In this document: positions 13,314 to 64,000 of the stretch, piece after piece
Layout of the letters: each line of letters opens with the position of its first letter
Position numbering within the stretch: position 1 is the first letter of the stretch
Assembly: GCA_964276515.1 (NCBI GenBank)
Contig: OZ193910.1
Coordinates: 1,612,001 to 1,676,000 of the forward strand
Direction: 5' to 3'
Source: Gordius albopunctatus
Taxonomy: Eukaryota
Length of the DNA: 64,000 nucleotides
Notes under the pieces: model-generated
The model's database searches: none
What the model was told of the DNA's origin: nothing
What the model saw: only the letters and a program-made list of their open reading frames with translations
Program-made: the position numbers and the translations under genes

Positions 13314-14578
13314 CAGAGCTGTTAAGAACTAGTTCATTTTGAACTAGTTCATAGAACTAGTTCACCTTTTTCTGAACTTAGAACTGAACTAGTTACCTTC
13401 CCAAAAATTTGAACTGTGAACTTGAACTAGTTCATTTTTTTAAGATTGAACTTGAACTAATTATTTTTTTTCTAATTCTGAACTTGAACTTGAACTATAC
13501 AATGTAATTGAACTAGTTCATCACAAATATATTATTTAAAATAAATTTATAAGCCGAGTGTGTTTGCATCAACAATTTGACGTGCATTGTCTTTTCGGTA
13601 ATCATACAGACACACAGTAACCGCGAATTTTTGATTTTAAAAACACAGAAATTTTTAGAAAAGATGGATACCCTTAGGGATTCGGGTATTTGCTCTGAAG
13701 TAGATAATAGGAACGAGGCAGCTCAATCTACCTTTTTACCTTGGCCTTCAATGGAAGTATACTTCAAATATGTATCTTCAGATAAAGATTCATTCAAAGT
13801 TAAGTGCAAACTATGCACTAAAGTTGTGGCGGCTTCAAGAACCTCAATAGCCAATTTATGGAGACATATAAAGGTAATAAGAATAACTTATTATAATTTA
13901 TAATATAATATCTAGGTGTCTCACTTTCAAAAACATGATGAGATTAAGAAGGCTGTCAAGAATAAGGCTGGAAAAAGTTGTGAAGCTAACAAAAAGTTAA
14001 CACAGGCATTTAATGTTTGCCTTCCATCTAGTGCTCCAGTTGAAAGGCTTTTAAGTCTGGGAAAGCTTATATTTGGAGATAAACGTACTTGTTTATTAAA
14101 CGATAATTTTGAGAACAATATTTTATTAAAGTCCAATTCACATCTACTTTCACATGATTTTTATTGTATATTATAATTGTATATTGTTTGTAATAAAGAT
14201 TTTAAACATTTTATAGTTGATGATTTTGTTATATATGAATATTTCCTTAAATTAGATTTTCAAATATATAATAAAATAAACTATGAAATTTATTTAAAAT
14301 TTTGGATAGCTCTCAACAAAAACTGATTTTAATTTAGGAATCATTTCCTAAATTGGATTAGATTTAAACTTTATCATATTTAAAAAAATGAACTGAACTT
14401 TAACTAGTTATTTTTGTAAAATTGAACTATTAACTTGAACTAGTTACATTTTTTCCTACATGAGCTTGAACTTGAACTGGTTACTTTTGAAAAAAAAATG
14501 AACTTGAACTAATGATTTTTTCAAATTGAACTATGAACTTGAACTAGTTCGTATCATAGATGAACTTTAACAGCTCTG
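13314..14578 (+). mobile_element. Internally deleted hAT DNA transposon
   Basis: TIR CAGAGCTGTTAA at 13314-13325 and its complement at 14567-14578; exact 8-bp TSD CTAGTAAA; many subterminal TGAACT/GAACTAGTT repeats; BED zinc finger and hAT dimerisation remnants inside. Confidence 0.95.
13664..14176 (+). CDS. Spliced mini-transposase ORF: BED finger joined in frame to hAT C-terminal dimerisation region (156 aa)
   Basis: Exon 13664-13873, 42-nt GT-AG intron 13874-13915, exon 13916-14176; splicing completes CKLC...RHIKVSH and continues to LPSSAPVERLLSLG...NFENNILLK. Confidence 0.55.
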
Positions 14579-15885
14579 CTAGTAAAGGACTCTAAAGAAA
14601 CTAGGATAAATATAAAAGAGAAAGAAAAACATAAACCATATGTGCTATGCTTGGTAGTTCTTTGCCTATTATGTATTAAATATTTTGCTAGCTGGATTGT
14701 TAGGTATCAGGCGGACCCTTATGTGTGAAGACAATAGAGGGGGGGGGCTTGACAAAAGGTTTTAAGCAAACTTGAGTGACATTGTATAAAATCGGTAAAC
14801 GTATTGAAAATTATTGATTACATACGCACGTGTGTCCTTATGTCAGCATGTTATTATTATTTTTTTTTAATAACGGAGAACTGAGGGCAGGAGGGATGGA
14901 GTGAGATAGTCTTAGCGAGCAGAGAAAAATTAAGGGAGGCTAACTTAAAATTTGACATTGTCATAAGATAAACTTCCACTAAGTTGATATAGTGTAAAAA
15001 ACTTTTAATTAAAGTATTTTTTATGAAAGAGAGTCATATGATGGTTACAAATTAAAAAAAAATATTTTCCTGGTCAGCCTATGGAATGTGTAATGACTTA
15101 AGGCATTTCATCTATAGTAAAATTACATAAATAGTAAATGTATACTAAAATATTCAATGATAAATACTAATAAGCTTAAGTAGGGAATGTAATATAGATA
15201 TGCAAAAATAATTGAGTTAAGAGCAAATCATAAGATATTGAATATATTGGCATAAAACAGTTTAAATTATTTTCAATAATTTCACAGGCTCCAATTAAAT
15301 ACTAACAAAATTCCATTAAAATACGTAAGTTACCCTAAAATGTATGGATGCTAATTTCCTATAAATATTATTCTAAATTTTGTATTCAGGTAAAATAAAT
15401 ATCCTAAAATGCTAACAGAACATCTTAATATTAGAGTTCGCGGTTGGTAAATCAGCTAGTATTTATTTGGGGTTGGACACTATGAGTTAGTTTGAATAAA
15501 GGTCTGGGCTTAAGGATGCTTAAATAATTTTTATACATTTGAGAGATAAATATGATGGTTAAGATATTAAATCTTCATATCAAAATTGCATGCTATAGTA
15601 TTTAAGTACTTTTTAATATTTATGTTCGAGCTAATATATAAATAGTTATCAATTATTTAAGAAAATATACAAAGATAATCTTATATTATACTTTATTACT
15701 TTAATATTTACATTTTCAAAGTTTAATAAGAATAGTTGCAGTTTTACCTTTGGGCTTCATAATAGTTTTACCTTTTGCCAAATATTATTACATGTTCCTA
15801 CTCCTTTTGTCGCTTCCAAGTAATCCTAGGGTTCCATATGCAGATGTGGTTAACACCAGATTTCATACAAAATTTTCCTAGAATC

Positions 15886-28851: not shown

Positions 28852-31496
28852 CATCCAGCAAACTTTATATTAAAATTTGGGTCATAATAGCCAAGATTTG
28901 GGGACTGGGGAGGGCAAATTGATAATTTGTTGTTTATCTAAAAATGATTTCATTAAATATCATAAATAAATTTAATAGGGGCAGCCGCCCCTTCTTGCCC
29001 CCCCCCCTGACCGCCCTCCTAGGAATCCATTATTTAAATGGTATCTAAGAGATGCCTTGATTTCTAGTAATACCGATTACCACTACTAGTAGAATTTTCA
29101 TTCTTCTCTTCATCACATGCATAAATCGATAAAGTCATCTAAACTAACCCTGGCCCCTCTCGTGCTGGTTTAGTGGCACAAGTGCTTAATGCGTTGACAT
29201 AGCTGAGGACAGGAGGACATCAGTACTGGAGGGGGGGGCAGGTTAAAAAGCGGGCAAATATAATATTTTTCTTTTAAACAATATTTGACTTTATTGTAGA
29301 AGCTGTGAAGTATGGGGGGGGGGGCAGTAGTTCCTCCTTGCCCCCTTGGCTAGTTGCCCTTACCCACCTAAATCTCTCACCTTCATCCCGATCGTAATTA
29401 TTGATTTTATATTTCGAAGCGCGACAAAGTCTTTTACCTAGTGTAGTATGATGATACTAGGGATTTGGAATTGGGACGCGCATAATTTGCTCTTAGCTTT
29501 CAATAATCACGCTAATTACCATTACTTAATTCGATATTATATATCCGATTAGGGGATGGGGCCACATTTTAAATTTCAACGGAAAAATAATTTTTTTCTA
29601 AATTGTCTGAATTGTGCATTTTATGTAAAAAATTTGCAGTCAAGTTTCATCAAATTACACTTTAAGAATCCAGGGTGTTTCTATCATGGGCGTAGCCAAA
29701 GGGGGCATGGAGGGGTGGCTGCCCCCCTCTAAATCCTAAAATGTGTTGAAATATATTAAAATTATGGGGCAAAATTTTCAAAAAATCATCATTTCGCCCC
29801 TCCTTAAAACAATATTGCCCCCCCTCTAATTCCAGTGCTGGCTTCGCGCAGGGTTTCTAGATCTCCTCCCACCCGCATTATATTATGTTTTCTTCAATTC
29901 AACCATACCTATAACTCAAAAACTGAAATATTTCTATACATTTGACTACACGACTTTAGCCCTTGGGCTTGTGTAAATAAATGAAAAAATCTTGTTAAAA
30001 ATCAATAAAGATGTGATAGCAGCTATATGATTCAACACCCATTTTAAAATCACGTAAGATGCCGCCTTTCTTCTTTACATAAAATTTGCAATCTGGCATT
30101 GCCTGAGGAGAGCCAACCTGAAGTATTAAAACTAACCAACAACAATACATAACATAGTATTATTGTATGTATATATAGTAAGTCTAAGTAGTGAACTCGT
30201 TCTCTCTCTCTCCCTATATGATATGGTATATGTCTTTTAGGAAGCAAGGGGTTGATAAAACTTGTGTGTTTTGTATTGTATGAAGTGTAGTAGTTGTAGT
30301 AGTATGACTTTTTTTACTAAGTTACACCGATGATGAGATGACATCGGTCTATTTGTGTGTCGTCAAACAACCCCCCACCCCCCACAAATCATAGGGAGGG
30401 GGGGGGGGTAGGGTATAACACGTGACTATATCACTAAACCGCCCGCCCCGCCCCCCGTTTATAAATATCGACCCCGTCTTTTATTTTAAATCGGTGTTAT
30501 ATGCATGTTATTGTGTTGTAGCACACTTCTCACTATTATCACTTCTGTGCAAAATGTAATATAGGCAAGGGTTAGATTCAGTGATTTATTTGATAATATG
30601 TATTTATTTGATATAAAATAGTATTATACATTTTGATATAACTCATTTTGTTTCAATTAACAATCATAGTATCCTTTTATTACCTACTTTTTTAGTACAT
30701 AATTACATGCGTATGAATATGCGTGACGACGGGTCTCAATTTCTAAAATACGCGAATATTACATTTTGCACCAGATTCACTATTATTCTACTATGATGAG
30801 ATGAGGACTATAGCAAACGCGGGCATCATATTCACTCTTCTCCAGCTCCACACACCATACTGACTGCTAGCCTAGCTGCATCAAAGCGGGGGGAAGGGGG
30901 GGGGCGGCGGCGGCGGCGGTAGGGGAGAAGCTCATCAAAGTGTGTGTGTACGTGTACGTGTAGTAAACCAATAAAAATGTATTAATAAAATAATAGAAGC
31001 AACACTCCCATCCCTATCATAATGTTCAGCGCACTTACAAACAAAGGCACCACCACCACCTACCAACTTACTTAAATATATAATAATTTCTTGGGTTGGG
31101 CAGCATTGAATCGAGAAATCATCGATAGAGATATATAGTGGTGTGGATTTGATAGGGGTCGGTGGTGGGATGGGGGTAGAGGCATTGATTTTTAATAACG
31201 TCACAAAACCTGGCTTCCCTTCGGAGTCCCTCCCGCATCAATATTCAATGGGACTTTTCGTAACGCGCGTCGCCCTGGTTACGACACTTTGTTAGAGCGT
31301 GGAGAGGACAAATTATATTATTGATAACTTTATCAAGCAGCCTCTGCGCGCTCGTTCTCAGTGTTAGTGTCGCGTTGCCAATTTGGCACACTATGCCCCC
31401 ACCCCCACACATTACGTTGATCGTCTCCAAAATCTATTTTGAATACTCTACGAGAGAAAGTTAATAATATCATATTGTTGTCGCGTAGTATAGTTA

Positions 31497-32210
31497 ATGG
31501 CTAATTACGACGAAAGCACTACTTCAAATTTAAACGCTGCTACTACTACAGCAGCAGCAACAACGCTTAGTAATACCATTCATTCCCCACCTGGTATAAA
31601 TAGCACGTATCGGATGAAGCGTAAAAAATTTATGAGTTTAACGTCAGCAGCGGTTACGCTCAAGAGTAAGCTACTCAAGCTTTCCCTCACCAAACTCGGC
31701 CAAATCACGGATCCAGAAATCAAGCTGAGACGCTGCGTACTCATATACAACGCTGCGAAGGCGCTCAAGCGCGAAATCGTGGCGCTAGAGGAGAAGCGTA
31801 GCGCTGCCCTTAACGCTTCTTGCCCATCTCCCTGCTCGATTAACGGGAAAAAAGGTCAGTACATTATAAAGGAAGAAGACGCTCTACTTAAAACTTACAA
31901 CGTTCCCCCAATTTCTAGCGATCCTACGACTGTATCAGCACCCTGCCCGGGTAAAGATCAATACAGGTATTCCAATAGCGGCGTTACCTATCATTTTTAT
32001 CCGACGTCCTCAAATCGTAATAACTACGAACCGCTTGACGCTCGGGGCTACCAAATAGGGGCGTCAAAAAACGCTACCACTTCGGCATCATATTCCATGT
32101 TGGATTTTTCGAAATATTCTCAACATCATCATACATTAACAAGTCCCTCATCATCCCCACCATTAATCGCAAATTCGCCAGTGGAAAGTTTAAAATTATT
32201 CGATTTTTAA
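31497..32210 (+). CDS. SERTA-domain protein (SERTAD/CDCA4/Taranis-like), duplicate copy
   Basis: 237-aa ORF with LLKLSLTKLGQITDPEIKLRRCVLIYNAAKALKREI, the SERTA signature; protein identical to 54734-55447. Confidence 0.8.
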   Translation: MANYDESTTSNLNAATTTAAATTLSNTIHSPPGINSTYRMKRKKFMSLTSAAVTLKSKLLKLSLTKLGQITDPEIKLRRCVLIYNAAKALKREIVALEEKRSAALNASCPSPCSINGKKGQYIIKEEDALLKTYNVPPISSDPTTVSAPCPGKDQYRYSNSGVTYHFYPTSSNRNNYEPLDARGYQIGASKNATTSASYSMLDFSKYSQHHHTLTSPSSSPPLIANSPVESLKLFDF

Positions 32211-33931
32211 TGATAACCACGGGCGTAGCCAAGGGAGGGGGGCAAGGAGGGGCGGCTGCCCCCTCTCTAATTCCAGGGCTGACTAAGCCCGTGTCGATTA
32301 CGATTGTTATCTAAAATTTTGTCAAAAAATAAAATGCGTTACCAAAAGATCTCTGTTTCTTCATTATTTACCCTGAAAATATTTATTGGGGACCGACCCG
32401 CATGAATTGAATCACGGAATGGCAATACGGATGAGACTATTTGTAAAATATGGACAACTCACAAATTTTTTATTGATGCGTACTACTATTTTATTATTTA
32501 TATGTGACATATCTATTTATATTTTGTGTCTCGTTAAAAGTGATCAATAAAATTGACCGTTATCTCTGGATATTTATTTAAGTTTCCAAAAAGTATAAGT
32601 TAGTAGCGTCGAATCTTTGTTTAGCGTTAAAAAAATATATATGGTTTGGCAGGATATATTTGAAAATCTGCCCCCCCCCCTTTAAATCTAAAAATTTGTT
32701 GAAATTTATTAAAATTATGGGGCTAAAATTTGAAAAACACTCATCTAAATGAACATTATACTTGAGTATGGACTTCTACAGGACGTGGCCAAATTTAAAT
32801 AACCTGTAAAATTAATTAAATTTTGGATTAAACTTGTGGAAAAATATTATTTGCCTTTCACTACATTATTATAATTAATATCTTGGCTTGTAATATAAAA
32901 AAATAATCTCCAAATTACAGTCACTTTTTAATTAAAAATAACCCCATTGTTTTACAATTCATAAATATTGAAGGATAAAATTATTAAGTTGGAGTTTTAA
33001 AGGAACTGAAATTGTGTTATTTATCCAAACTAGCTTGATTTAGAGAGAAAATTTAATATTGTTTGTCAATCTTAAATACCCGATTAGAAGATACATAAAG
33101 TAAATCAACAACCTAAAAAAGAATATTTTACTTTATAATACTTAAAGTTTAAGATTAATATTTTAAAAAATATAGCATTATTCGTAATAAATCAAATGAA
33201 TTTTTAAAAGAATTCTTAACAACAAATTAATTTATTTTTAATAATATTAATTACAAGCAAAAAAACTAAAATATAATAATCTATAAAATTCACCTTTTTT
33301 TAACACCCTCTAAATTGTTGTTCTTTTTTGGTGAAAAAATCAATTTTAAAAGATCACTTACTCTAGCTATACTGCTTATGGAGAGTGTATTAAAAGGTCA
33401 TTTAAGAAATCAATAACTGCCACCGATTGTTCCTATAATTGAAAGTGAAACTATAATACCTAAATTTTTATTTTGACACCTCATTACTCTTAAAAGTTGT
33501 CAGATTTCAAATAAATTAATTGCATTTTTTGCTAAAATTTAGTAAAAAAATTCTTAAAATTTATTTTAAAAAAGGACTAATTTTTTATATTACGAAAATG
33601 GAGAAAGAAAGAATGTATTTTTTTTAATTTCGCCCTAATTTGCTTGCATATATAAATTTTAAATTTAAAAAGAATAAGTCTAATTCTTATTTAAGATCAA
33701 ACTTTAAAACAAAAAGTTTAAAAAATGTAATTTCAATTGATGCTTTATTTATAATCAAATTATTAAACACGAAATTTTATTGCACGATTGCAGGGCTCCG
33801 TTCTAAAGAGTTGTAACTTTTTGTAATCTGATCCATTTAATTTTAATTTTTGTTTGAAACTTGATTTAGGAAGATGAAAAATTGCTGTAAAACTTCACGT
33901 TTCACGACTCTAAGTTATTCTAGGAGACATT

Positions 33932-36095
33932 TTAAAGTTGTAAGTATTGAGCGTAGTTGTATCCCGAAACAGAAAAATCTTGAGCATAGAGCTGAATTAA
34001 AGATCTAACTTGTTTTTTACTCAATTGTTTCATGTATTTCTTAACTACCCTTCCACTGGCACGGCTTTTTCTCTCTAAAGTATCATGTCTTAGGGTTGGA
34101 AATTGGGCCCGGAGCCTACCAAAATTAAGCCTAGAATGTCGTCGAGCTATTCTGTGTAAGATGTAATTTTTGTCGAAAGTAAAAGTTTCGAAATGTCCCA
34201 AAATATCGAAACGAGCTTTGCAAGGAGAACATAGTTCGACGAATGGCCTCCATAATTTGTCACCTTTCAAGGTTAGGTGGCGTTCGTACAGTATGTAAGA
34301 TACGAATTCTGGAAATGTGACATCGTGGCCCCTGTTAAAAAATTCATAAATTATGTGCAAATTGTAATTGGGTGATGGTTATAAATATAAATTTTATAAT
34401 AGTGACTTCCGGCCTAGCGAGGGGGTGTCAGAAAGGGGCAGCTGCCCCCCTCTCTAAATCCAAAAATTTGTCAAATTTTAATATAATCATGGATAAAATT
34501 ACTAAAAATTATTATTTTGCCCCTGACTAAATCATTTTTGTCCCCTATAAATCCAACCCTGGCTTCGCCTATGGTGACTATTTAATTTCAAAACAGGCGA
34601 GATCGGTTTAAACATTGTAAACATTTAGAAATAGTTGCTTCTTTTTCTTATGAAAGTTCAACATTATTGGATTCTGAAAATGTAAAGGACCCTGGATTAG
34701 AGAACTGTAAAGTAACTTTATTTCAACACGAACCTGACTTGAAATATTTCGAAAGTTTTTAACCTCCGCACGATCCGATCCGAAAGCATTTCAAAATTTC
34801 AATTGGAACCCGAAGGGATTCGGGTCACCCGTGCATGTTCCTACCTTGGATTCTCCTGTATTCCTCACCAAGTGTTATTATTGGAGTTTAAAAACAACAT
34901 TAATTTGTCACTAGGATTAGGCTTATTTTCAAATTCACCTTTTATATTAAAACGTAACATGTCGCCTTTAGAGGATGTGCACTCTGGCATGTGTATTTAA
35001 TTCGGATGATCTAAATAATAGAGGAAGTAGGCCCCGACTCTAGTTATTATTTACTCAAAGATGCCCTACCCCTATGTTTGCATATTTGCTCTAGTTTAAT
35101 TGCATTCTAACATTTTTATGACATCCGTTGCTTAGGCTAATATTAGTAAATTCGAGAATAAAGGGGCTCCTGAAGATCGTGAATTTAAAAAAAATAAAAT
35201 TTTTGTAAAATCCTGTATAATAATTTAAAATAGAATATACGCATTTCGTGCTTAGATCTTGTGGTTTTAATTTTGTTCAAAAAACTACCATTGACTCGCC
35301 TGATGAATAGAGTGTTAACCCAGGATTGGAATTGGAACTAGAGAGGGCAATTAAGATTTAAGGAGGGGCAAAAGGAAATTTTTTTGATATTTTCACCAAA
35401 CCTTTCCAAATAATTATGATATACTCAGTTTAAATTCCCCAATATAATTATGAATGAAAGTTGCCCAATTTTCAAATCCATAAGCAATGCTTAATGCCTT
35501 TTTAAATCGCTTTAGGCAAAATATGATAAAATTCCGGCCCAAACCCAAGCCCTATTATTTTATCAAATTTAGCCTTAGCCCCGCCCAAAACTTTTCAGGG
35601 CCGCCGGGCCGGGTCGGGCCTCGGGCGGCCCGTGTAGACTTACAAAACACGAGATGATAGGGAGGCGTTAGGTCTAAAGTGAGCTATTATGAAGGTACCG
35701 AGGTGTAATTGATAAAACCGATTCATTTCACCGGCTGCCAGTGTAAATTTATCTAGGTAAGCGGAAACCAATCTTTCGAAAGGATGACGAACGAAAGCGA
35801 AAGTCAGGAAAGACGTTGAAATGTTGGTAAAACATTTGTTTTCGGACCAATACCCATTTCCCGCATACAAATTATTTTTGTAATGAGCATCCAGCATCGA
35901 TATTCGATCTGCTAGTTGCTGATCATTTTGGAGAGCTTTGGCCGTGCCGAAATAATCGAGGATTGCCTTGGACTTTGATTTTTTAGTGTGCATTCTGAGT
36001 TTAGGAGTTACCATAGATTTCGCATATCGATCATACATATTGGAATTCGATCCTTCTGATTTTGAACGGGTTTCACTGAGTAACATAAGCATTTT
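33932..36095 (-). CDS. Carbohydrate sulfotransferase, duplicate copy 5'-truncated by the gap
   Basis: Exons 36095-35644 and 34331-33932 mirror the complete gene at 50304-53011. Confidence 0.8.
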
Positions 36096-36295
36096 NNNNN
36101 NNNNNNNNNNNNNNNNNNNNNNNNNNNNNNNNNNNNNNNNNNNNNNNNNNNNNNNNNNNNNNNNNNNNNNNNNNNNNNNNNNNNNNNNNNNNNNNNNNNN
36201 NNNNNNNNNNNNNNNNNNNNNNNNNNNNNNNNNNNNNNNNNNNNNNNNNNNNNNNNNNNNNNNNNNNNNNNNNNNNNNNNNNNNNNNNNNNNNNN
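36096..36295. other. Assembly gap (200 N)
   Basis: Run of exactly 200 N. Confidence 1.
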
Positions 36296-36418
36296 TTTTA
36301 GGATTCAGAAAAAGCTATTTTACCCCTGGCCGCCCTGGGCATCTACGGTTAAATTTTCGCACGAATCGGGCCGGTAGTTTCAGAGATTAGCCCTTACATA
36401 CATATATTATATAAAGAT
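36296..36418 (+). mobile_element. Helitron-like repeat, right part
   Basis: Near-copy of 28510-28600, then AATCGG...TAGTTT, (ACAT)n and TATATAAAGAT, an end structure seen in non-autonomous Helitron-like repeats. Confidence 0.55.
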
Positions 36419-42462: not shown

Positions 42463-43884
42463 GACCTTGGCTGGATCATGGGAAGTCGGGCCTTCGGGCT
42501 TACCGCTTCCCGATGGGGCAAACACATCCAAGTCTCCCAGATGGCTTGCGCAACTTATATTTCAAATTCGGGAGACGCGCCGTTGGATTTTTTCCCAATC
42601 AGAACTTCCGTCGGGGGCGACGGGAGCGATCCAGTTGCCTGACACTAATTATTCCGATACATTTATTCCAGCCCCCGACTACGAGCATCGCATTAAACAG
42701 GTGGAGGCCGCCTTCGGCCGGGATCTGGGGTCTGAATCATTCCCCATTTTTAGCCTCCACAAATCATTATTCTGTTGGAACAAAGAGCCGTCACGGAACC
42801 CACCTACCGGGCCGTTAGACATCGCAACTTCTAGGCTCATACCACATCATTCGCAATCCCCTTTCACAAGAAGGATAGCCCGAAAAGGCTTCATGCCTAA
42901 GCTGGACATGGTTAAAATCCGGGAGCACGGAGGCATATACCTCACATCTCGTCGAAAAGCCATCTCCAGAGGTAAACCAGAGCATTTCCGCACCATGCTG
43001 GAGATGCAAACGGTAGAAAGGACCGACAAAAATATCATCAAGTCGGCCACCTTTTTCATCCCGAAAACAAACGGGGACGCTAGGGTCATTACGGACCTAT
43101 CCGAGGTCTCTAAGAACTTCGTTCACTATCCAATAAAACTAGCATCCATCCCCCTGACGTCCAGACAGCTGAGCAGGGCATCGTACGTGGCAAAAATAGA
43201 CCTCAAACCGGCTTTCTTTAGCATCCCACTAAATATCTGCAAGAAAATACGCAGCGTACACATTCGAAGGGCTCAAATACCGCTACAAAGTATTGTCCAT
43301 GGGAGCGTCATACTCCCCATACGTTCTACAGATGATCACCTCCGACTTAGCCAAGAAAGCGGTGGCCAAATGCAAATACAATGTCTACCTTGATGACATT
43401 CTTATATACGGAGACACCTACACAGATGTTCAAGAGGACCTAGAAAGCTTCTTCGGACTAGCAGCTGATTGGGGTCTCACGGTAAACGCTAGGAAATCTT
43501 CAATTCTACCGGAGAGGGACATTGAGTACCTGGGGATGAACATCTCTTTCGAAGAACATTCCATTCGATGCTCGGACAGAACGGTAACGCGTCTTGAATA
43601 TGCCGCTGACATTTTATTCTATGCCTATACTACAAACACCCCGCCCCCTACCAAAATTTTACGCACTCCTCGCCGTCCGCTACAATATCCAGTGGATTCC
43701 CACGGACGAAAACCCAGCCGATTATCCCTCACGAACTTGGCTCCCGCCAGAACGATACACCGTACCCTCAATCCGGACCGGCCAGCCACCTGAAAGCACC
43801 ACAATACCCGATATCCACGACGAAGAAGACGACCTCTTCGACTGGAACGATTGGGCAGGCGAAAAAATATATTTTCCGACCTAA
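42347..43884 (+). pseudogene. pol of the RT element (N-terminal domain, RT, RNase H remnant), disrupted
   Basis: Frame open from 42347; TFFIPK..GDARVITDLS, KIDLKPAFFSIPL, frameshift near 43235, YKVLSMGASYSPYVLQ, VYLDD, GLTVN..KS, IEYLG; 491-nt deletion at 43662/43663; NPADYPSR; stop at 43882-43884. Confidence 0.9.
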
Positions 43885-50303: not shown

Positions 50304-53011
50304 ATGATGAAGATTATAAAAAAATATAAATTCAAAACTGACTCGCGATCTACAATAATCGGATTTTTTATGTTAATTATTACGATTTGCATGTATTTTT
50401 GGCAACATTCAATTCATCAAAAATCTCTCACAAATTCATCCGAGATTATGAAACTGGAAAAAAGCTTATTTACATTCAAAAAAAACAAAAGTAAAAATTA
50501 ATTTTATTTAAATATATATTACACATCAATTTGCCTAATGCAAAATTTTAATTTCATTTATAGGCAAACAAAAATGTATTTCTCAAGATGAAATTTTCAA
50601 ACATAAAAAAGTATTTATTCATTGTAATTACCATTTTAATAATTAAAAAAATGTTATTGAAACTTAGATAAGTGCAGAAGAGTTGCCAGATTATTTTAAG
50701 ACGAGAAATAATGAACTGAATAAAAGGTGTCGCACTTTATACGGGGCTAGTATGGGCCCGCAGATAGATTATGAAAACTTTGTGGCGGAACCCACAACTG
50801 GTCTTTTGTATTGCATGGTTTATAAAGTGGCCACTACAAATTGGCTTAAAATGCTTATGTTACTCAGTGAAACCCGTTCAAAATCAGAAGGATCGAATTC
50901 CAATATGTATGATCGATATGCGAAATCTATGGTAACTCCTAAACTCAGAATGCACACTAAAAAATCAAAGTCCAAGGCAATCCTCGATTATTTCGGCACG
51001 GCCAAAGCTCTCCAAAATGATCAGCAACTAGCAGATCGAATATCGATGCTGGATGCTCATTACAAAAATAATTTGTATGCGGGAAATGGGTATTGGTCCG
51101 AAAACAAATGTTTTACCAACATTTCAACGTCTTTCCTGACTTTCGCTTTCGTTCGTCATCCTTTCGAAAGATTGGTTTCCGCTTACCTAGATAAATTTAC
51201 ACTGGCAGCCGGTGAAATGAATCGGTTTTATCAATTACACCTCGGTACCTTCATAATAGCTCACTTTAGACCTAACGCCTCCCTATCATCTCGTGTTTTG
51301 TAAGTCTACACGGGCCGCCCGAGGCCCGACCCGGCCCGGCGGCCCTGAAAAGTTTTGGGCGGGGCTAAGGCTAAATTTGATAAAATAATAGGGCTTGGGT
51401 TTGGGCCGGAATTTTATCATATTTTGCCTAAAGCGATTTAAAAAGGCATTAAGCATTGCTTATGGATTTGAAAATTGGGCAACTTTCATTCATAATTATA
51501 TTGGGGAATTTAAACTGAGTATATCATAATTATTTGGAAAGGTTTGGTGAAAATATCAAAAAAATTTCCTTTTGCCCCTCCTTAAATCTTAATTGCCCTC
51601 TCTAGTTCCAATTCCAATCCTGGGTTAACACTCTATTCATCAGGCGAGTCAATGGTAGTTTTTTGAACAAAATTAAAACCACAAGATCTAAGCACGAAAT
51701 GCGTATATTCTATTTTAAATTATTATACAGGATTTTACAAAAATTTTATTTTTTTTAAATTCACGATCTTCAGGAGCCCCTTTATTCTCGAATTTACTAA
51801 TATTAGCCTAAGCAACGGATGTCATAAAAATGTTAGAATGCAATTAAACTAGAGCAAATATGCAAACATAGGGGTAGGGCATCTTTGAGTAAATAATAAC
51901 TAGAGCCGGGGCCTACTTCCTCTATTATTTAGATCATCCGAATTAAATACACATGCCAGAGTGCACATCCTCTAAAGGCGACATGTTACGTTTTAATATA
52001 AAAGGTGAATTTGAAAATAAGCCTAATCCTAGTGACAAATTAATGTTGTTTTTAAACTCCAATAATAACACTTGGTGAGGAATACAGGAGAATCCAAGGT
52101 AGGAACATGCACGGGTGACCCGAATCCCTTCGGGTTCCAATTGAAATTTTGAAATGCTTTCGGATCGGATCGTGCGGAGGTTAAAAACTTTCGAAATATT
52201 TCAAGTCAGGTTCGTGTTGAAATAAAGTTACTTTACAGTTCTCTAATCCAGGGTCCTTTACATTTTCAGAATCCAATAATGTTGAACTTTCATAAGAAAA
52301 AGAAGCAACTATTTCTAAATGTTTACAATGTTTAAACCGATCTCGCCTGTTTTGAAATTAAATAGTCACCATAGGCGAAGCCAGTGTTGGATTTATAGGG
52401 GACAAAAATGATTTAGGCAGGGGCAAAATAATAATTTTTAGTAATTTTATCCATGATTATATTAAAATTTGACAAATTTTCGGATTTAGAGAGGGGGGCA
52501 GCTGCCCCTTTCTGACACCCCCTCGCTAGGCCGGAAGTCACTATTATAAAATTTATATTTATAACCATCACCCAATTACAATTTGCACATAATTTATGAA
52601 TTTTTTAACAGGGGCCACGATGTCACATTTCCAGAATTCGTATCTTACATACTGTACGAACGCCACCTAACCTTGAAAGGTGACAAATTATGGAGGCCAT
52701 TCGTCGAACTATGTTCTCCTTGCAAAGCTCGTTTCGATATTTTGGGACATTTCGAAACTTTTACTTTCGACAAAAATTACATCTTACACAGAATAGCTCG
52801 ACGACATTCTAGGCTTAATTTTGGTAGGCTCCGGGCCCAATTTCCAACCCTAAGACATGATACTTTAGAGAGAAAAAGCCGTGCCAGTGGAAGGGTAGTT
52901 AAGAAATACATGAAACAATTGAGTAAAAAACAAGTTAGATCTTTAATTCAGCTCTATGCTCAAGATTTTTCTGTTTCGGGATACAACTACGCTCAATACT
53001 TACAACTTTAA
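50304..53011 (+). CDS. Golgi carbohydrate sulfotransferase (HNK-1ST/CHST8-14 family)
   Basis: Exons 50304-50490, 50564-50610, 50668-51299, 52612-53011; N-terminal TM anchor, 5'-PSB YCMVYKVATTNW, 3'-PB FAFVRHPFERLVSAY, WRP...CSPC, GHFET, LYAQDF. Confidence 0.9.
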
Positions 53012-54733: not shown

Positions 54734-55447
54734 TTAAAAATCGAATAATTTTAAACTTTCCACTGGCGAATTTGCGATTAATGGTGGGGATGATGAGGGA
54801 CTTGTTAATGTATGATGATGTTGAGAATATTTCGAAAAATCCAACATGGAATATGATGCCGAAGTGGTAGCGTTTTTTGACGCCCCTATTTGGTAGCCCC
54901 GAGCGTCAAGCGGTTCGTAGTTATTACGATTTGAGGACGTCGGATAAAAATGATAGGTAACGCCGCTATTGGAATACCTGTATTGATCTTTACCCGGGCA
55001 GGGTGCTGATACAGTCGTAGGATCGCTAGAAATTGGGGGAACGTTGTAAGTTTTAAGTAGAGCGTCTTCTTCCTTTATAATGTACTGACCTTTTTTCCCG
55101 TTAATCGAGCAGGGAGATGGGCAAGAAGCGTTAAGGGCAGCGCTACGCTTCTCCTCTAGCGCCACGATTTCGCGCTTGAGCGCCTTCGCAGCGTTGTATA
55201 TGAGTACGCAGCGTCTCAGCTTGATTTCTGGATCCGTGATTTGGCCGAGTTTGGTGAGGGAAAGCTTGAGTAGCTTACTCTTGAGCGTAACCGCTGCCGA
55301 CGTTAAACTCATAAATTTTTTACGCTTCATCCGATACGTGCTATTTATACCAGGTGGGGAATGAATGGTATTACTAAGCGTTGTTGCTGCTGCTGTAGTA
55401 GTAGCAGCGTTTAAATTTGAAGTAGTGCTTTCGTCGTAATTAGCCAT
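54734..55447 (-). CDS. SERTA-domain protein (SERTAD/CDCA4/Taranis-like)
   Basis: 237-aa single-exon ORF with the SERTA signature LSL.KL....DPE..LRR.VLI.N. Confidence 0.85.
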   Translation of the reverse strand: MANYDESTTSNLNAATTTAAATTLSNTIHSPPGINSTYRMKRKKFMSLTSAAVTLKSKLLKLSLTKLGQITDPEIKLRRCVLIYNAAKALKREIVALEEKRSAALNASCPSPCSINGKKGQYIIKEEDALLKTYNVPPISSDPTTVSAPCPGKDQYRYSNSGVTYHFYPTSSNRNNYEPLDARGYQIGASKNATTSASYSMLDFSKYSQHHHTLTSPSSSPPLIANSPVESLKLFDF

Positions 55448-58400
55448 TAACTATACTACGCGACAACAATATGATATTATTAACTTTCTCTCGTAGAGTA
55501 TTCAAAATAGATTTTGGAGACGATCAACGTAATGTGTGGGGGTGGGGGCATAGTGTGCCAAATTGGCAACGCGACACTAACACTGAGAACGAGCGCGCAG
55601 AGGCTGCTTGATAAAGTTATCAATAATATAATTTGTCCTCTCCACGCTCTAACAAAGTGTCGTAACCAGGGCGACGCGCGTTACGAAAAGTCCCATTGAA
55701 TATTGATGCGGGAGGGACTCCGAAGGGAAGCCAGGTTTTGTGACGTTATTAAAAAATCAATGCCTCTACCCCCATCCCACGACCGACCCCTATCAAATCC
55801 ACACCACTATATATCTCTATCGATGATTTCTCGATTCAATGCTGCCCAACCCAAGAAATTATTATATATTTAAGTAAGTTGGTAGGTGGTGGTGCCTTTG
55901 TTTGTAAGTGCGCTGAACATTATGATAGGGATGGGAGTGTTGCTTCTATTATTTTATTAATACATTTTTATTGGTTTACTACACGTACACGTACACACAC
56001 ACTTTGATGAGCTTCTCCCCTACCGCCGCCGCCGCCGCCCCCCCCCTTCCCCCCGCTTTGATGCAGCTAGGCTAGCAGTCAGTATGGTGTGTGGAGCTGG
56101 AGAAGAGTGAATATGATGCCCGCGTTTGCTATAGTCCTCATCTCATCATAGTAGAATAATAGTGAATCTGGTGCAAAATGTAATATTCGCGTATTTTAGA
56201 AATTGAGACCCGTCGTCACGCATATTCATACGCATGTAATATGTACTAAAAAAGTAGGTAATAAAAGGATACTATGATTGTTAATTGAAACAAAATGAGT
56301 TATATCAAAATGTATAATACTATTTTATATCAAATAAATACATATTATCAAATAAATCACTGAATCTAACCCTTGCCTATATTACATTTTGCACAGAAGT
56401 GATAATAGTGAGAAGTGTGCTACAACACAACAACATGCATATAACACCGATTTAAAATAAAAGACGGGGTCGATATTTATAAACGGGGGGCGGGGCGGGC
56501 GGTTTAGTGATATAGTCACGTGTTATACCCCCCCCCCCCTATGATTTGTGGGGGGTTGTTTGACGACACACAAATAGACCGATGTCATCTCATCATCGGT
56601 GTAACTTAGTAAAAAAAGTCATACATCTAACTACAACTACACTTCATACAATACAAAACACACAAGTTTTATCAACCCCTTGCTTCCTAAAAGACATATA
56701 CCATATCGGGAGAGAGAACGAGTTCACTACTTAGACTTACTATATATACATAACATACAATAATACTATGTTATGTATTGTTGTTGTTGGTTAGTTTTAA
56801 TACTTCAGGTTGGCTCTCCTCAGGCAATGCCAGATTGCAAATTTTATGTAAAGAAGAAAGGCGGCATCTTACGTGATTTTAAAATGGGTGTTGAATCATA
56901 TAGCTGCTATCACATCTTTATTGATTTTTAACAAGATTTTTTCATTTATTTACACAAGCCCAAGGGCTAAAGTCGTGTAGTCAAATGTATAGAAATATTT
57001 CAGTTTTTGAGTTATAGGTATGGTTGAATTGAAGAAAACATAATATAAGTGATTTTTTGCGGGTGGGAGGAGATCTAGAAACCCTGCGCGAAGCCAGCAT
57101 TGGAATTAGAGGGGGGGGCAATATTGTTTTAAGGAGGGGCGAAATGATGATTTTTTGAAATTTTTGCCCCATAATTTTAATATATTTCAACACATTTTAG
57201 GATTTAGAGGGGGGCAGCCGCCCCTCCATGCCCCCCCCCCCCCCTTGGCTACGCCCATGATAGAAACACCCTGGATTCTTAAAGTGTAATTTGGTGAAAC
57301 TTGACTGCAAATTTTTTACATAAAATGCACAATTCAGACAATTTAAAAAAAATTGATTTTCCGTTGAAATTTAAAATGTGGCCCCATCCCCTAATCGGAT
57401 ATATAATATCGAATTAAGTAATGGTAATTAGCGTGATTATTGAAAGCTAAGAGCAAATTATGCGCGTCACAATTCCAAATCCCTAGTATCATCATACTAC
57501 ACTAGGTAAAAGACTTTGTCGCGCTTCGAAATATAAAATCAATAATTACGATCGGGATGAAGGTGAGAAATTTAGGTGGGTAAGGGCAACTAACCAAGGG
57601 GGCAAGGAGGAACTATTGCCCCCCCCCCCATACTTCAAAACTTCTACAATAAAGTCAAATATTGTTTAAAAGAAAAATATTATATTTGCCCGCTTTTTAA
57701 CCTGCCCCCCCCTCCAGTACTGATGTCCTCCTGTCCTCAGCTATGTCAACGCATTAAGCACTTGTGCCACTAAACTAGCACGAGAGGGGCCAGGGTTAGT
57801 TTAGATGACTTTATCGATTTATGCATGTGATGGAGAGAAGAATGAAAATTCTACTAGTAGTGGTAATCGGTATTACTAGAAATCAAGGCATCTCTTAGAT
57901 ACCATTTAAATAATGGATTCCTAGGAGGGTGGTCAGGGGGGGGGCAAGAAGGGGCGGCTGCCCCTATTAAATTTATTTATGATATTTAATGAAATCATTT
58001 TTAGATAAACAACAAATTATCAATTTGCCCTCCCCAGTCCCCAAATCTTGACTATTATGACCCAAATTGGATGTTTTGTTATGTTAGCCGGTAGTGTACA
58101 CAATTAGGTAGATAAATTTGCTGACTTAGGATTTTAATTGCCATAAAAAATCATTAAAATATTTTTAAATTTTCATCAATATTCTTGAAGATGTAATGCT
58201 CAGATAAAAAAATAGAATATTTAAAGAAAAAGGAACTAAAGCAGTTCTAGGAATTAGTTTTGAGAACGAATAGGTTTAAAGTCAGCCCCTGACCCTACAA
58301 CACTACATTCAAAGTTTTATAGGCATTTTTTGCGTACTTTTATCCTAAGTTATCGAAAAATTAAGTAATTTTAACATTTTTCTTTAAATATTAGAGGAAA

Positions 58401-61400
58401 AAATTGAAAAAGGTTCACCGCCCCCCCCCCCCTAAATATAAGAAAAAAATACAATTTTAGCGATTAATTTGATCGTATCAAATAAATTTTACAAAAATCA
58501 ATAAAAAGAAGGGGGAGTGAGTGGGAAACGATGTTAAAACAATCTAACGAGAGTGGTTTTTATTTTATTTATAAAAATGTTTTTTTTTCTCGGTTTTTAA
58601 AAAGCACATTTCGATCGACCTTGATAGATGCATTGCCAAAAGCGCGTATTTCGTTGCGCTGCCAATTGTATGGTTATTTAACCAAGAATCCTTTAATTTA
58701 CCTGCTTTTTGTCGATGAGGGTAAATTAGAAAATATTTTATCTGATTACATTTGTATAGTTGATTTTAATGAAAATGTCCACTTTTTCTATCTGAATAAA
58801 TCTGTAGGCTCTTGATTTAAACAAATTTTGATTGAAAAACATTATAAAATGGGAAAATTGTCATTTTTATTTGCATTAAGATGAGCCTAAGCATTTGCTA
58901 AAATCCTTTTATATGATTTAAACATATATGTTTTTTACGGTGAAACAATCAATGTTTTAATGCAAGTATCCAAAAAGTAATTTATAAAAAATAGTTAATA
59001 AAAGTTGAAATAATATCCCGAGGGAATTAGAAGGTCGATCTTATATTATACAGTAAGATGTCAAAAAATATAAACCTTCATTATGCTACTTGTATTATAT
59101 AAAATCAATTGAATTTTTCTATAAATTTATCGGAGTTATAGTTTGTAAATTAAGAAAAATATATATAAGGATGATTTGTTTTATATATCGCAAGAAAATA
59201 AGTAATATTTAAACTGTTAAATTTTTGAGTAATTTGTTATAAATATTTAAACTGATAAATTTTTGATTAATTTGTAGCAAAATTAGTTTTTTTACGGCCA
59301 TGAAGACATTTTATTAAAATATTTACGTACCCTTGTAAGTTATATACATACTCCATAATACTCACATTCCCCTAAAATTATATTTAATATACTCCCATTT
59401 TTGTAATAAAAATTTATTTCACAATCAAAAATCAAATTAAACACAGCAACTTATTTTTTTACAAACCAAATTTATCTATAATAAAATATAGTAGTTTAAT
59501 AATAATTATTTAAACATATTTTCTGCGTCATGACTTTAACAGTTCAACTTCTTAGTATCTCTCCATTATAAATTGTCTTCTTACTAATAACCCTGGTGTA
59601 TGAACATAAAGGTTTATTAACTTATACAGGTGGTGTTCAGTCAAGCAGATGTACATTTATAACGGTCATTTATATATACAACGATATGGATTTGAGGCAG
59701 GGAGGGGCGGCTGCCCCCCTCTAAATCCAAAAATGTGTTGAAATTAATTAAAATGATGGCTAAAATTTCAAAAAATGTTCATTTTGCCCCATCCTAAATC
59801 ATTTTTGCCCCCCCCCCCCACGATTCCAATGCTGGCTACTCTCATGATGGTTGATATTTCACCAAATAAATATACATAAACATGCCTTTGATAGCAATTA
59901 TTATTAAGACTTTGACAAAAACTGGTATTTTATCAAACGTTTCAATTCTTTTATTTACTGACATTACAAATTCTATACCTATTTAAACCCCAAAAAATAT
60001 AACCAATAACAATGATCCCTTATAAAGCAACAACCTAGACAAATTGCCAAAAAAAACTTATATATAAAGGTCGGCAACTGGGGACAAAAATAATATTGGA
60101 TTTTAGGATCGGGCGAGGTCGAAAAAATGAAAGCCAATCGGCGGTCATTAGCTAGTCTATTTGCGAAAGCAAAATTAATATCTTTTACGGAAGCATAAGT
60201 CCACAGCCATTGAAAACCTGAATAATTTGCCACATCAAGTTTTGAAAAATTACAAGAAAAACGAACCCATAAATTGCGTAGCAATTAATATTTTAGCCAA
60301 GAGGGGGGGGCAATAATGATTTAGGGAGGGGCAATATGAAAATTTTTTGAAGTTTTAGCCATATTTTTAATGAATTTCAACAAATTTTTGAATTTAAAGC
60401 CCATCTGCTAAGCCCATGACTTTAGTATTTTTAAAACTTATTTCAAAAAATTATTAACAAATTCATAAACGGGACCATTTTTTGTCGATTTCCTTGCCAA
60501 AAGCATGGTGGTAAAAAACTATGAGCGCGCGCGCGCGACTGTAAATTTAAGTGCGTGGAGACAAAGGCAGCTCTTTGAGGTTTGTTCAAAAGGGGGGAGA
60601 GTAGAGAGAGCGAAGACATGTCATTTATGCATTATTTATGCCAAGGACGTCTTCTTCAGCTTCTTCCACTTTCAACTAATCCCTTTCTTCTTAACCTACT
60701 AACTAACCAATAATATGCTATAGGTTACATGGGCGTAACCAAGCGGAGGGGCAGGAAGGCGCGGCTGCCCCCCCCCTCTTAATCCAAAAAAATGTTAAAC
60801 TTTATTAAAATTATGGGGCTAAAATTTCAAAAAAGGATCATTTTGCCCCTCCCTAAGTCATTATTGCCCCCCCCCTCTAATCCCAATGCTGGCTACACCC
60901 ATACCCTCGTTGACTTATCTTTTGACTAATATATTTACAGCATAGAATTCAGGGTAGAAAATAATAAACACTTGACATCATACCTGATAGGAGATGCGTC
61001 CTGATAAAAAAGGTGACACTGCATTACCCCAAATAATGAACCTTTGGTCTGTATATGTTTAGTCGACTAAAAACCAAAGGGTGACCAAACGGAACCCACC
61101 CGTTTTTACAACACTAGTGTATGGAGGGAGGTGTCCGTGGCGGTTAAAAAAAATTAGCCATTTGTCAAACTTAATAATCGGCTATTCCAATCCAATTTTT
61201 AATATTTCAATATTCACTTGAATTCTTACATTTTTAAGTCGATATCAATATTTTGTTCAAAAATCTTAGATCTTGGCTCTTTCGTTTACCCTCGACTAAC
61301 ACATGAGCAGGCGAAATTAGAGACCCGCCACGGGCCTCTTTAAGTCAATCTACCCGCCCGTTACATTACACCTAAATTTTTATTTTGCATCTCTTAATAT

Positions 61401-62270: not shown

Positions 62271-63040
62271 TATTCTTCTTCTTTATCAGTTATTCGGTCC
62301 CACATTCGTGTGGTTTGTTTTGATAAGTTTCTTCCATCTTGACCGGGTGAGTGCCATTGACGAATCTCTTTAGTTTTCATGACTTTATCGAGTTGCCCTT
62401 TCCACGTGACACGGGGTCGTCCTCTTCCTCTCTTCCCCAGCTCCATGCCCAGTACTTTTCAATTTACGTCATCCATATCCCTTCTAAGTATATGCCCCCC
62501 ATACCACCTTAGCCGATTTTCGTTAATCATGTCCGCCATAGGTTGTTGAATACCCATTTTTGTCATGAGAAAGTCATTCGTCATATGGTCGAGCTTAGTA
62601 TACCCCAAGCTCCACCCTATCATTCTCATCTCTGTGGCTTGTAATAGCTTTCCTTCCGTGGTGTTTAATGCCCATGTTTCACTTCCATAGAATAACACCG
62701 GTCTTACGATGGATTTGTAAGCTTTGCTTTTTAACCATATTGACATTTTCTTGTCGCACATTACACCGGATATATATCGCCATTTAAGCCATCCTTTTTG
62801 GATCTGCGCATTGACTTCCGTTGCGCAACCTCCCGAGTCCCGATGTAGCATCGAGCCGGGTATGTAAATCTTTCTACTTTTGGGTACTTTAGATGGTCAT
62901 CCAGCGATGGGGTGCCTTTACCGTGTATACCGTTTTTAAATCTTTGACTTTTAAACCATATCCAGCTAAGCGCTTTGACCACTTTTCGTCTTCTTCGAAT
63001 ACTTTCTCCCTTGTTTCCTCGCACCACAGTACCATATCAT
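62271..63040 (-). mobile_element. RTE-type LINE 3' fragment
   Basis: Broken frames DDMVLW..GYGLKV, WLKWRYISGVMCDKKM, YKSIVRPVLFYGSETW, RLRWYG.HILRR, RGRGRPR; (GAA)n 3' tail near 62274-62282. Confidence 0.85.
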
Positions 63041-63115
63041 TAGAGCTGTTAAAGTTCATCTTAATTATAAACTAGTTCAAGTTCAGTCGATCTTGCCAAA
63101 TTAGTACAAGAGGAT

Positions 63116-63175
63116 CCAGACTTAAGTTCTGGCCTTCAAATGAGGTCGTGGGTTCAGATCCCACTTCTGACACCA
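63116..63175 (+). pseudogene. 3' 60-nt copy of mature tRNA-Leu(TAA) including CCA (extended primer-binding site)
   Basis: Anticodon arm CCAGA-CTTAAGT-TCTGG, long variable arm, T arm GTGGG-TTCAGAT-CCCAC, acceptor strand TTCTGAC-A-CCA; D arm and 5' acceptor strand absent. Confidence 0.9.
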
Positions 63176-63182
63176 CTTATTT

Positions 63183-63392
63183 TGAGCTGAATAATATACT
63201 TTCGAAAGAGGTGGTTAAAATATTTATTATATAATTCCAAAATAATACAAGATAAAAATTATTCGGTAAACGAATTAATACAGCTGTAATAATAATATAT
63301 TTTCGTCAATACGTTACAATGTCGATAATTCACTTTTATATAATACAAGTTATAATACTAATTCCTGCATGGAGAAGTTACAACTCCTTACA
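63183..63392 (-). mobile_element. Short LTR (~210 bp) followed by a tRNA-Leu PBS
   Basis: Minus strand TGTAAGGAG...CAGCTCA with internal TATATAAAAG and AATAAA, then after 7 nt TGGTGTCAGAAGTGGGAT; the whole insert 63086-63392 is flanked by AGTTCA repeats. Confidence 0.7.
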
Positions 63393-64000
63393 AGTTCATA
63401 GTTCATTTTGGAAAATAAAATTAGTTTTAGTTCAAGTTCAAATTTTACAAAATGAACTAGTTCAAGTTCAATTCACAGTTCATTTCATTAAAAAAATATA
63501 TTATAGAATTTTAATCCGATCCGAGAGGTTTTTGAAAAACGTTCTGATTAAAAATCACTTCTAAATCCAATCCGCAATTTTAAAACTCTATGAATCAAAT
63601 TTTTATTTATGATTAAGTTTATTTAAACTTATTGTTTATTTTAAGTTAGAAATAGCCCATTATAAAATCTAAGTTAATAAACATTTTTCATATATCAATA
63701 AGCTTTTTTATACAAAACTAAATTAGCCATATAATAACAATTATATGTGTAAAACTTTTGATTTCAAACAATATAACTGTCGTGGTTTCTTCTGCGCTAA
63801 CCCTCACCTTTCTCTCTCTCTCTCCTTGCAATTGATGATAGAAATCAAGGGGAAATAGATGGGAAACTTCAATAATATATTATTTTCAGAATTATTATTT
63901 AATAAAGATGAAAGTTTATCCACAAAGAGAGGTTTTCCTAAATTGAACAGTCTTTCAACAAGAGCACTAGATGGAATGCAAACGTTATATTTAATAAAAA

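Follow-up and report, generated by a model that had tools for sequence, protein, structure and literature searches.

The stretch of DNA examined here is a 64,000 nt window of contig OZ193910.1 of Gordius albopunctatus (assembly GCA_964276515.1, positions 1,612,001 to 1,676,000 of the forward strand), and all coordinates given below are positions within this window. It has a G+C content of 33% and carries G protein-coupled receptor (GPCR), SERTA, sulfotransferase and long interspersed nuclear element (LINE) sequences; a PKA-like open reading frame drew protein-atlas matches from a mixture of animal phyla. At 63086-63392, a 307 bp insert lies within a hAT-like repeat. Read on the minus strand, this insert presents a unit resembling a long terminal repeat (LTR), an 18 nt primer-binding site (PBS) for tRNA-Leu and a continuation of the complementarity to 60 nt, reaching through the T, variable and anticodon arms of the tRNA.

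On the plus strand, the insert begins with 30 nt (GTCGATC...GGAT), followed by an anticodon arm (CCAGA-CTTAAGT-TCTGG), a long variable arm, a T arm (GTGGG-TTCAGAT-CCCAC), the acceptor strand TTCTGACA, the triplet CCA (63173-63175) and 217 AT-rich bases ending in ...CTCCTTACA. Metagenome contigs were scanned for the T-arm/acceptor stretch, with A or G allowed at tRNA position 58 and all other bases of positions 52-73 intact, and this gave at least 134 matches in at least 126 loci. Most of the matches listed represent genuine tRNA-Leu genes with the pattern GTCAGGATGGCCGAGTGGTCTAAGGCG-CCAGACTCAAGTTCTGG-... and anticodon CAA, and some genes with AAG, CAG or TAG anticodons share the 3′ end. When compared with the closest of the 29 distinct intron-less genes among the matches listed, 63116-63172 is identical at 51 of 57 positions without a gap; the CCA that follows brings the full complementarity to 60 nt (tRNA positions 27-76). 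A first-pass annotation, made from the letters of the window, had described complementarity running beyond the PBS through these three arms with CCA present, and the ungapped alignment bears this out.

The tract differs from the closest gene at position 34 (C to T; 63123), at 44, at two variable-loop bases, at 47 and at 58 (A to G; 63157). The meaning of the changes at 34, 44 and 47 depends on the animal's own tRNA genes. Position 58 is A in 133 of the 134 matches listed, in a scan that could show only A or G there, and the single G58 belongs to another CCA-bearing retroelement tract. The unusual G at 63157 had been pointed out in the annotation and is confirmed. The same annotation named the tRNA as tRNA-Leu(TAA); the anticodon letters do read TAA, but the backbone is that of CAA genes, a TAA anticodon arm on this backbone being found in none of the 126 listed metagenome loci while the CAA arm gave 66 gene hits. 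Judged by its letters, the source appears to be a tRNA-Leu of the CAA type whose wobble base has changed, unless a TAA gene of this kind exists in the genome. An origin from mitochondrial tRNA-Leu(UAA) was considered and rejected, as the long variable arm, T arm and acceptor are those of cytosolic genes.

To the left of position 27 the likeness to tRNA collapses. The 30 nt at 63086-63115 need three gaps to reach about half identity, and their score is matched by 170 of 5000 shuffles and by 114 of 5000 30-mers of the window, in agreement with the annotated end of similarity at position 27. Up to A73 the tRNA-like part measures 87 nt, against 84 nt in the real genes. ARAGORN makes no tRNA call in the window, and the Rfam tRNA model spans 63095-63172 from end to end with a score of 16.4 bits, against a threshold of 29.

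The minus strand of the insert opens with TGTAAGG at 63392, and the landmarks that follow are in LTR order: a TATA-like box (TATATAAAAG) at element-strand positions 51-60 (63342-63333), AATAAA at 165-170 (63228-63223), a CA at 209-210 of 217 and the PBS at 218-235. Motifs like TATA and AATAAA are common in AT-rich DNA. The PBS matches the tRNA at 18 of 18 nt, including the CCA, and stands 7 nt after a CA. The LTR had been annotated as TG...CA followed by the PBS; the TG start and the exact 18 nt PBS stand, but the closest CA stops 7 nt short of the PBS. In organism B (see below), the bases abutting the LTR start are purines in 11 of 12 positions of the element strand (one contig each in runs X3 and X6). 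A purine-rich flank is the expected look of the polypurine tract (PPT) preceding a 3′ LTR.

Table 1. Positions of the insert, its parts and the adjoining repeats in the window.
Feature	Position	Strand	Basis
LINE reverse-transcriptase fragment, 5′-truncated, adjoining the host repeat	62459-63023	-	open reading frame with reverse transcriptase-like C-terminal motifs
Host-repeat start with hAT-like terminus TAGAGCTGTT... and AGTTCA subrepeats, interrupted by the insert	63041-63079	+	comparison with second copy
Target-site duplication AGTTCA, left copy	63080-63085	.	empty paralogous site in the window; contigs skipping 313 bp
Leader segment past the tRNA tract, weakly like the 5′ third of tRNA-Leu, starting GTC	63086-63115	-	shuffles, depth, loose ends
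PBS extension, complement of tRNA-Leu 27-58 (anticodon arm, variable arm, 5′ half of T arm)	63116-63157	-	
18 nt PBS TGGTGTCAGAAGTGGGAT, complementary to tRNA-Leu 59-76 including CCA	63158-63175 (63175-63158)	-	
LTR-like unit, 217 bp (210 bp if ending at the CA of GCTCA, 63183)	63176-63392	-	
Target-site duplication AGTTCA, right copy	63393-63398	.	empty paralogous site; contigs skipping 313 bp
Host repeat resuming after the insert	63399-63600	+	contigs and second copy

The insert is flanked on both sides by AGTTCA. A second copy of the host repeat, the reverse complement of 14381-14620, reads ...CAGAGCTGTTAAAGTTCATCT...AACTAGTTCAAGTTCA/TAGTTCAATTTG and represents an empty site with one AGTTCA fewer, while the insert-bearing copy reads ...AACTAGTTCAAGTTCA(307 bp)AGTTCA/TAGTTCATTTTG. 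Comparison of the empty site with the filled copy indicates a 6 bp duplication of AGTTCA, a length within the 4-6 bp range of LTR retrotransposons. Contigs from public sequencing runs were also compared (X1 and X2 represent organism A, with 0.49 and 0.42 of words; X3 is among four runs of organism B; there were others). Contigs that skip 313 bp, i.e., 307 plus 6, support both the insert and its duplication: a skip from 63077 to 63391, with 8 ambiguous bases, occurs in five contigs of X3 and three of X6, and a skip from 63080 to 63394 in one contig of X3. An uninterrupted host repeat beyond 63085 is found in contigs that leave the window sequence there (21 in X1, 26 in X3 and 21 in X6). The number of AGTTCA units varies in the host family, and joints that skip 320 and 326 bp also occur, so the precise size of the duplication is taken from the majority form and from the in-window copy. 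A 307 bp insert between AGTTCA copies is what the first-pass annotation had reported, and it is confirmed by the empty site and by the contigs skipping 313 bp.

The host repeat has the terminus CAGAGCTGTT in the second copy and TAGAGCTGTT at 63041 in the copy that bears the insert. The start CAGAG/TAGAG is presumably a hAT-style terminus motif, making it plausible, from the letters, that the host repeat represents a hAT end. Further AGTTCA-rich copies are found at 13417-13497 and 14389-14577 (minus strand), and the copy at about 14534-14577, which retains the CAGAGCTGTT terminus, acts as the empty site for the insert. Next to the host repeat, depth in the runs is very high over 62924-63023, by far the deepest stretch, with loose contig ends at 63023.

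Run contigs were aligned to the 307 bp insert alone at 80% likeness. This placed 90 contigs of X1, 65 of X2 and 135 of X3 on the insert, of which 36, 29 and 72, respectively, were 99% alike or better. X7 gave a single contig, below that level, which stops at A73, like a gene. At 63244 every covering contig has G, against an A in the window, which marks a private change of the window copy relative to its family. Summed depth over blocks of the insert ranges from 2.4k to 36k in X1 and from 1.1k to 10k in X2, and contigs that are long or bear a junction have depths of 350-463 (X1) and 148-188 (X2). Summed depth does not equal copy number and is only a rough sign, in this case of several to tens of insert copies in the organism A runs.

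The right terminus is shared by contigs of X1 and X2, which match to 63392/63393 and then continue into other sequence. At the left end, five contigs of X1 and four of X2 pass 63086 into one shared sequence (agreement 0.96 and 0.93, respectively). This shared continuation shows that the family extends leftwards, that the tract lies inside a longer repeated unit, and that the window copy is cut off at 63086. The left 33 nt of the insert are among its deepest parts (26-31k in X1). Two contigs of X2 depart at 63125 into a diverged version of the anticodon stem and variable arm, and coverage is lower at 63130-63140 and midway along the LTR, suggesting that subfamilies exist and that the tract is best preserved in the one represented in the window. 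Contigs of organism B cover the LTR ends and the part from the T arm to CCA but almost nothing of the central LTR (63185-63294). A 541 nt contig found in both X1 and X2 has its match confined to 63116-63175 (from position 27 to the CCA), differs there at 8 letters and carries this segment in a different context, and further contigs of organism A share only 63141-63175, then continue into different sequence past the CCA. Genome-contig and viral-contig collections were scanned for the CCA-LTR junction and for CCA-bearing tracts with any base at position 58, and neither gave a hit.

Among the 134 listed metagenome matches, CCA follows in three (L040, L055 and L100), and all three lose tRNA likeness upstream. 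Their ungapped tracts, including CCA, are 40 nt (L040; about 45 with a 2 nt gap), 36 nt (L055) and 34 nt (L100), compared with 60 nt in the window. A58 is kept in L055 and L100, while A58 to G is the only substitution within the tract of L040. This last is a complete small LTR element: its two 125 bp TG..CA LTRs are 99% identical, a purine tract precedes the 3′ LTR, and there is a 265 aa open reading frame (ORF) without a Pfam match. In L040, the 5′ LTR and then the PBS are found at 130-269; at 1453-1592, 15 nt of the same tRNA-Leu PBS also stand behind the 3′ LTR, after which unrelated DNA begins, and this makes a second junction of LTR plus primer copy, or a tandem. Three of the four IMG/VR hits (L127, L129 and L130) end their complementarity at exactly 18 nt, and in L130, a bona fide LTR element, the identical PBS stands ahead of reverse transcriptase (RT) and RNase H sequences. 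L127, which is found among viral contigs and is errantivirus-like, has an ORF for a baculovirus F-type envelope protein (316-2142, plus strand) upstream of its 18 nt tRNA-Leu PBS.

Taken together, the LTR polarity, the PBS shared with L130 and the lack of a credible Pol III promoter favour an LTR element, perhaps one of the size of a terminal-repeat retrotransposon in miniature (TRIM). On balance, and with moderate confidence, the insert is read as a fragment of a multi-copy and possibly TRIM-like LTR family with an inherited 60 nt tRNA-Leu tract, the part present being the 5′ LTR and the initial 90 nt of the leader. The tract would then have come down with the family and would not date from this particular insertion. 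As a fallback, the annotation had offered a family in which a long tRNA tract is stably kept, and the recurrence of the tract and junctions in contigs of X1, X2 and X3 now favours it. The window copy may derive from an incomplete cDNA that was integrated, or captured at a break; such an origin would account for a single true LTR end, an arbitrary opposite end and the clean duplication. Deletion within a full-length element after its insertion was also considered, and was rejected: it would need a breakpoint exactly at the boundary between element and duplication, where there is no microhomology.

As to how a family could come to carry such a tract, plus-strand strong-stop synthesis may have passed the 1-methyladenosine at tRNA position 58 (m1A58) and copied the primer as far as the next hard block, N2,N2-dimethylguanosine at position 26 (m2,2G26). 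Because the extension and the minus strand are complementary, the copy would have been retained; second-strand transfer would tolerate read-through, with the primer annealing over 60 nt. Such an origin is plausible from the sequence; the sharp boundary between positions 26 and 27, the G58, and the A58 to G change in the independent element L040 count for it. Against it counts G37, which is unchanged. tRNA-Leu carries 1-methylguanosine at position 37 (m1G37), and a raw reverse-transcribed copy should be scarred there. A single A to G transition would also be a cheap alternative account of G58. The further proposal that the leader was written and is kept fresh by its own primer, so that the 27-76 tract with its abrupt end at 26/27 and its G58 is a germline fossil of RT reading a modified tRNA, is put forward only tentatively and seems rather doubtful.

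Several observations, besides the unchanged G37, weigh against the favoured reading of the insert. Seven nucleotides separate the CA of the LTR from the PBS, and the LTR-like unit has no terminal inverted repeat. Neither a second LTR, an internal coding region nor a full-length copy was seen, and there is none within the 64 kb window. A two-LTR element is expected to give a depth ratio of leader to LTR of about 1:2, but the summed depth of the leader in X1 (26-31k) is close to that of the best-covered part of the LTR (31-36k). The left boundary coincides with what would be position 1 of the tRNA, and starts with GTC as the genes do. An LTR plus 90 nt, bounded by an exact 6 bp duplication, is not a product of normal LTR biology. 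Lastly, the variant table does not list every difference (for the X7 contig, which has 7 other letters, it gives no rows), and missing rows at 63157 and 63123 are thus no proof that G58 and T34 are present in all copies.

Some of these same features would suit a composite, SINE-like (short interspersed nuclear element) retroposon on the plus strand, in which a tRNA-Leu head with CCA is joined to an LTR-derived body and the whole was copied by LINE machinery, either full-length or 5′-truncated. The hypothesis that tRNA-derived SINEs arose from strong-stop DNA predicts just such a tRNA head fused to an LTR-derived body. The clean 6 bp duplication, the GTC start matching tRNA position 1 with a weakly tRNA-like 5′ 30 nt, the similar summed depths of leader and LTR parts, the constant 3′ end at 63392 with a 5′ side that varies among copies as in 5′ truncation, and the abundance of LINE RT fragments in the window all agree with it. 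Its transcription by Pol III is harder to reconcile with the sequence. The A-box region is degenerate, with the absent ARAGORN call and low Rfam score given above, and G at position 58 presumably departs from the B-box consensus, so that a functional internal Pol III promoter was not found; a run of four T at 63180-63183, only 5 nt after the CCA, and others at 63300-63303 and 63334-63337 also interrupt the plus strand. Nor does the insert show a Pol III-transcribable body with a LINE-type, A-rich or simple-repeat tail; it ends in ...CTCCTTACA, where, on the opposite strand, a unit begins with TG and carries TATA and AATAAA in the order of an LTR, and in organism B this TG end abuts the purine tract. 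Copies that extend left of 63086 do so with one shared sequence and not with varied flanks. A SINE-like unit is considered unlikely. Many copies were found, but they lack the look of a plain SINE with no tie to an LTR, which the annotation had named as the finding that would overturn it.

The annotation itself had preferred a single integrated plus-strand strong-stop DNA, recording the modifications of its own primer by read-through at m1A58 and a stop at m2,2G26. This would account directly for an LTR joined to a tRNA copy, for one LTR end and one non-LTR end within a duplication, for the CCA, for the sharp 26/27 boundary and for G58 where 133 of the 134 listed matches have A. However, many contigs of two organisms repeat the tract together with its LTR junction and the adjoining 30 nt on the left, copies run past 63086 into shared sequence, the 30 non-tRNA nt beyond position 27 should be absent from a product stopped at G26, and G37 is unchanged. 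The one-off event is accordingly not supported as the main explanation and seems very improbable. Less credible still is a one-step chimera made by a LINE RT that, after copying the 3′ end of an RNA, changed templates and continued from the CCA end of a mature tRNA-Leu. The duplication, a CCA-bearing tRNA part on the 5′ side and LINEs nearby are compatible with it, and chimeric tRNA/LINE-1 insertions with duplications are described in a preprint (bioRxiv 10.1101/2025.02.02.635956); the tRNA parts described there are mostly 5′ halves (positions 1-37) antisense to the LINE, whereas the partner here is not a LINE tail and the same junction is multi-copy, so that this explanation has very little to recommend it.

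Elsewhere in the window, two ORFs with a SERTA motif, of equal length and equal Pfam scores, are found at 31494-32210 (plus strand) and 54734-55450 (minus strand), and two sulfotransferase ORFs, at 35640-36314 (minus) and 50668-51303 (plus), lie in mirror order with them. A large inverted duplication is suggested by these mirrored ORFs and by BLAST hits that mirror each other as well (e.g., 33221-33249 and 53723-53695). At 60303-60360 and 60817-60874 there is an inverted repeat with 58 nt arms that are 90% complementary, 456 nt apart and have G/C homopolymer ends; 60303-60874 looks like a miniature inverted-repeat transposable element (MITE) or foldback element. LINE fragments at 9590-12231 (minus) and 43233-43793 (plus) have endonuclease and RT domains split across several frames.

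The primer sites of retroviruses and LTR elements are textbook 18-mers because m1A58 stops RT. If the reading favoured here is true, a 60 nt copy of a mature tRNA, CCA included and ending at the next blocking modification, would show that inheritance of read-through products is possible. What the window holds is itself an ordinary-looking family fragment, and the value lies in the family. Shorter relatives of 34-40 nt occur in unrelated metagenomic elements. On the same condition, genomes would hold natural records of tRNA modification and of RT misincorporation. Signatures of misincorporation left by m1A, m2,2G and m1G are described in PMC8062790.

The classical 18 nt PBS is the nearest point of comparison. 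The insert shares with it an exact complement of tRNA positions 59-76, including CCA, beside an LTR-like unit, and the same 18 nt are found in L130, L127 and L129; it differs in that a further 42 bases of ungapped complementarity lead on to position 27. In open-access full text, no description of a contiguous 60 nt tRNA tract was found, only work on Ty1 and human immunodeficiency virus (HIV). The 'extended PBS' of Ty1, a 10 nt PBS plus boxes matching other segments of tRNA-iMet, is similar in that pairing occurs well outside the acceptor end (PMC3592414). The Ty1 boxes are separate and short, whereas the insert carries one contiguous, near-perfect copy, and the portion of that paper that was available gives no hint of tRNA templating in Ty1.

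CCA-carrying SINEs derived from tRNA resemble the insert in having a tRNA-like head with CCA joined to LTR-like sequence. They differ in that the head of the insert appears to lack a working Pol III promoter and meets a run of four T at once, and in that the LTR polarity is on the other strand. Such SINEs have been hypothesised to stem from retroviral strong-stop DNA; the available sections of one review (PMC3747384) contain no passage on this origin. For the biv-TRIM elements, terminal repeats of 202-218 bp, an inner domain of 77-80 bp, and solo and tandem forms are reported (PMC6934838). Compared by description only, they fall in the same size class as the 210-217 bp unit with its short tRNA-related inner segment. 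In that source they are without a clear PBS, unlike the insert, and the second repeat and PPT of the insert's family were not seen in the window.

Lentiviruses offer the closest precedent for complementarity beyond the 18-mer. According to PMC8599865, plus-strand strong-stop corresponds to m1A58, lentiviral genomes are complementary to tRNA-Lys3 up to one base before 5,2′-O-dimethyluridine at position 54 (m5Um54), a second stop, and read-through past the complementarity is thought to be lethal for the product. What the insert would share is the idea that complementarity reaching the next RT-blocking modification leaves read-through products usable. If the reading is true, the lentiviral idea that complementarity to the next stop buffers against hypomodified primers would reach invertebrate elements. 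The lentiviral extension is about 4 bases (PMC8599865), against the 42 bases seen here, which would run to the block at position 26; and the primer here is tRNA-Leu, in a genome of invertebrate type.

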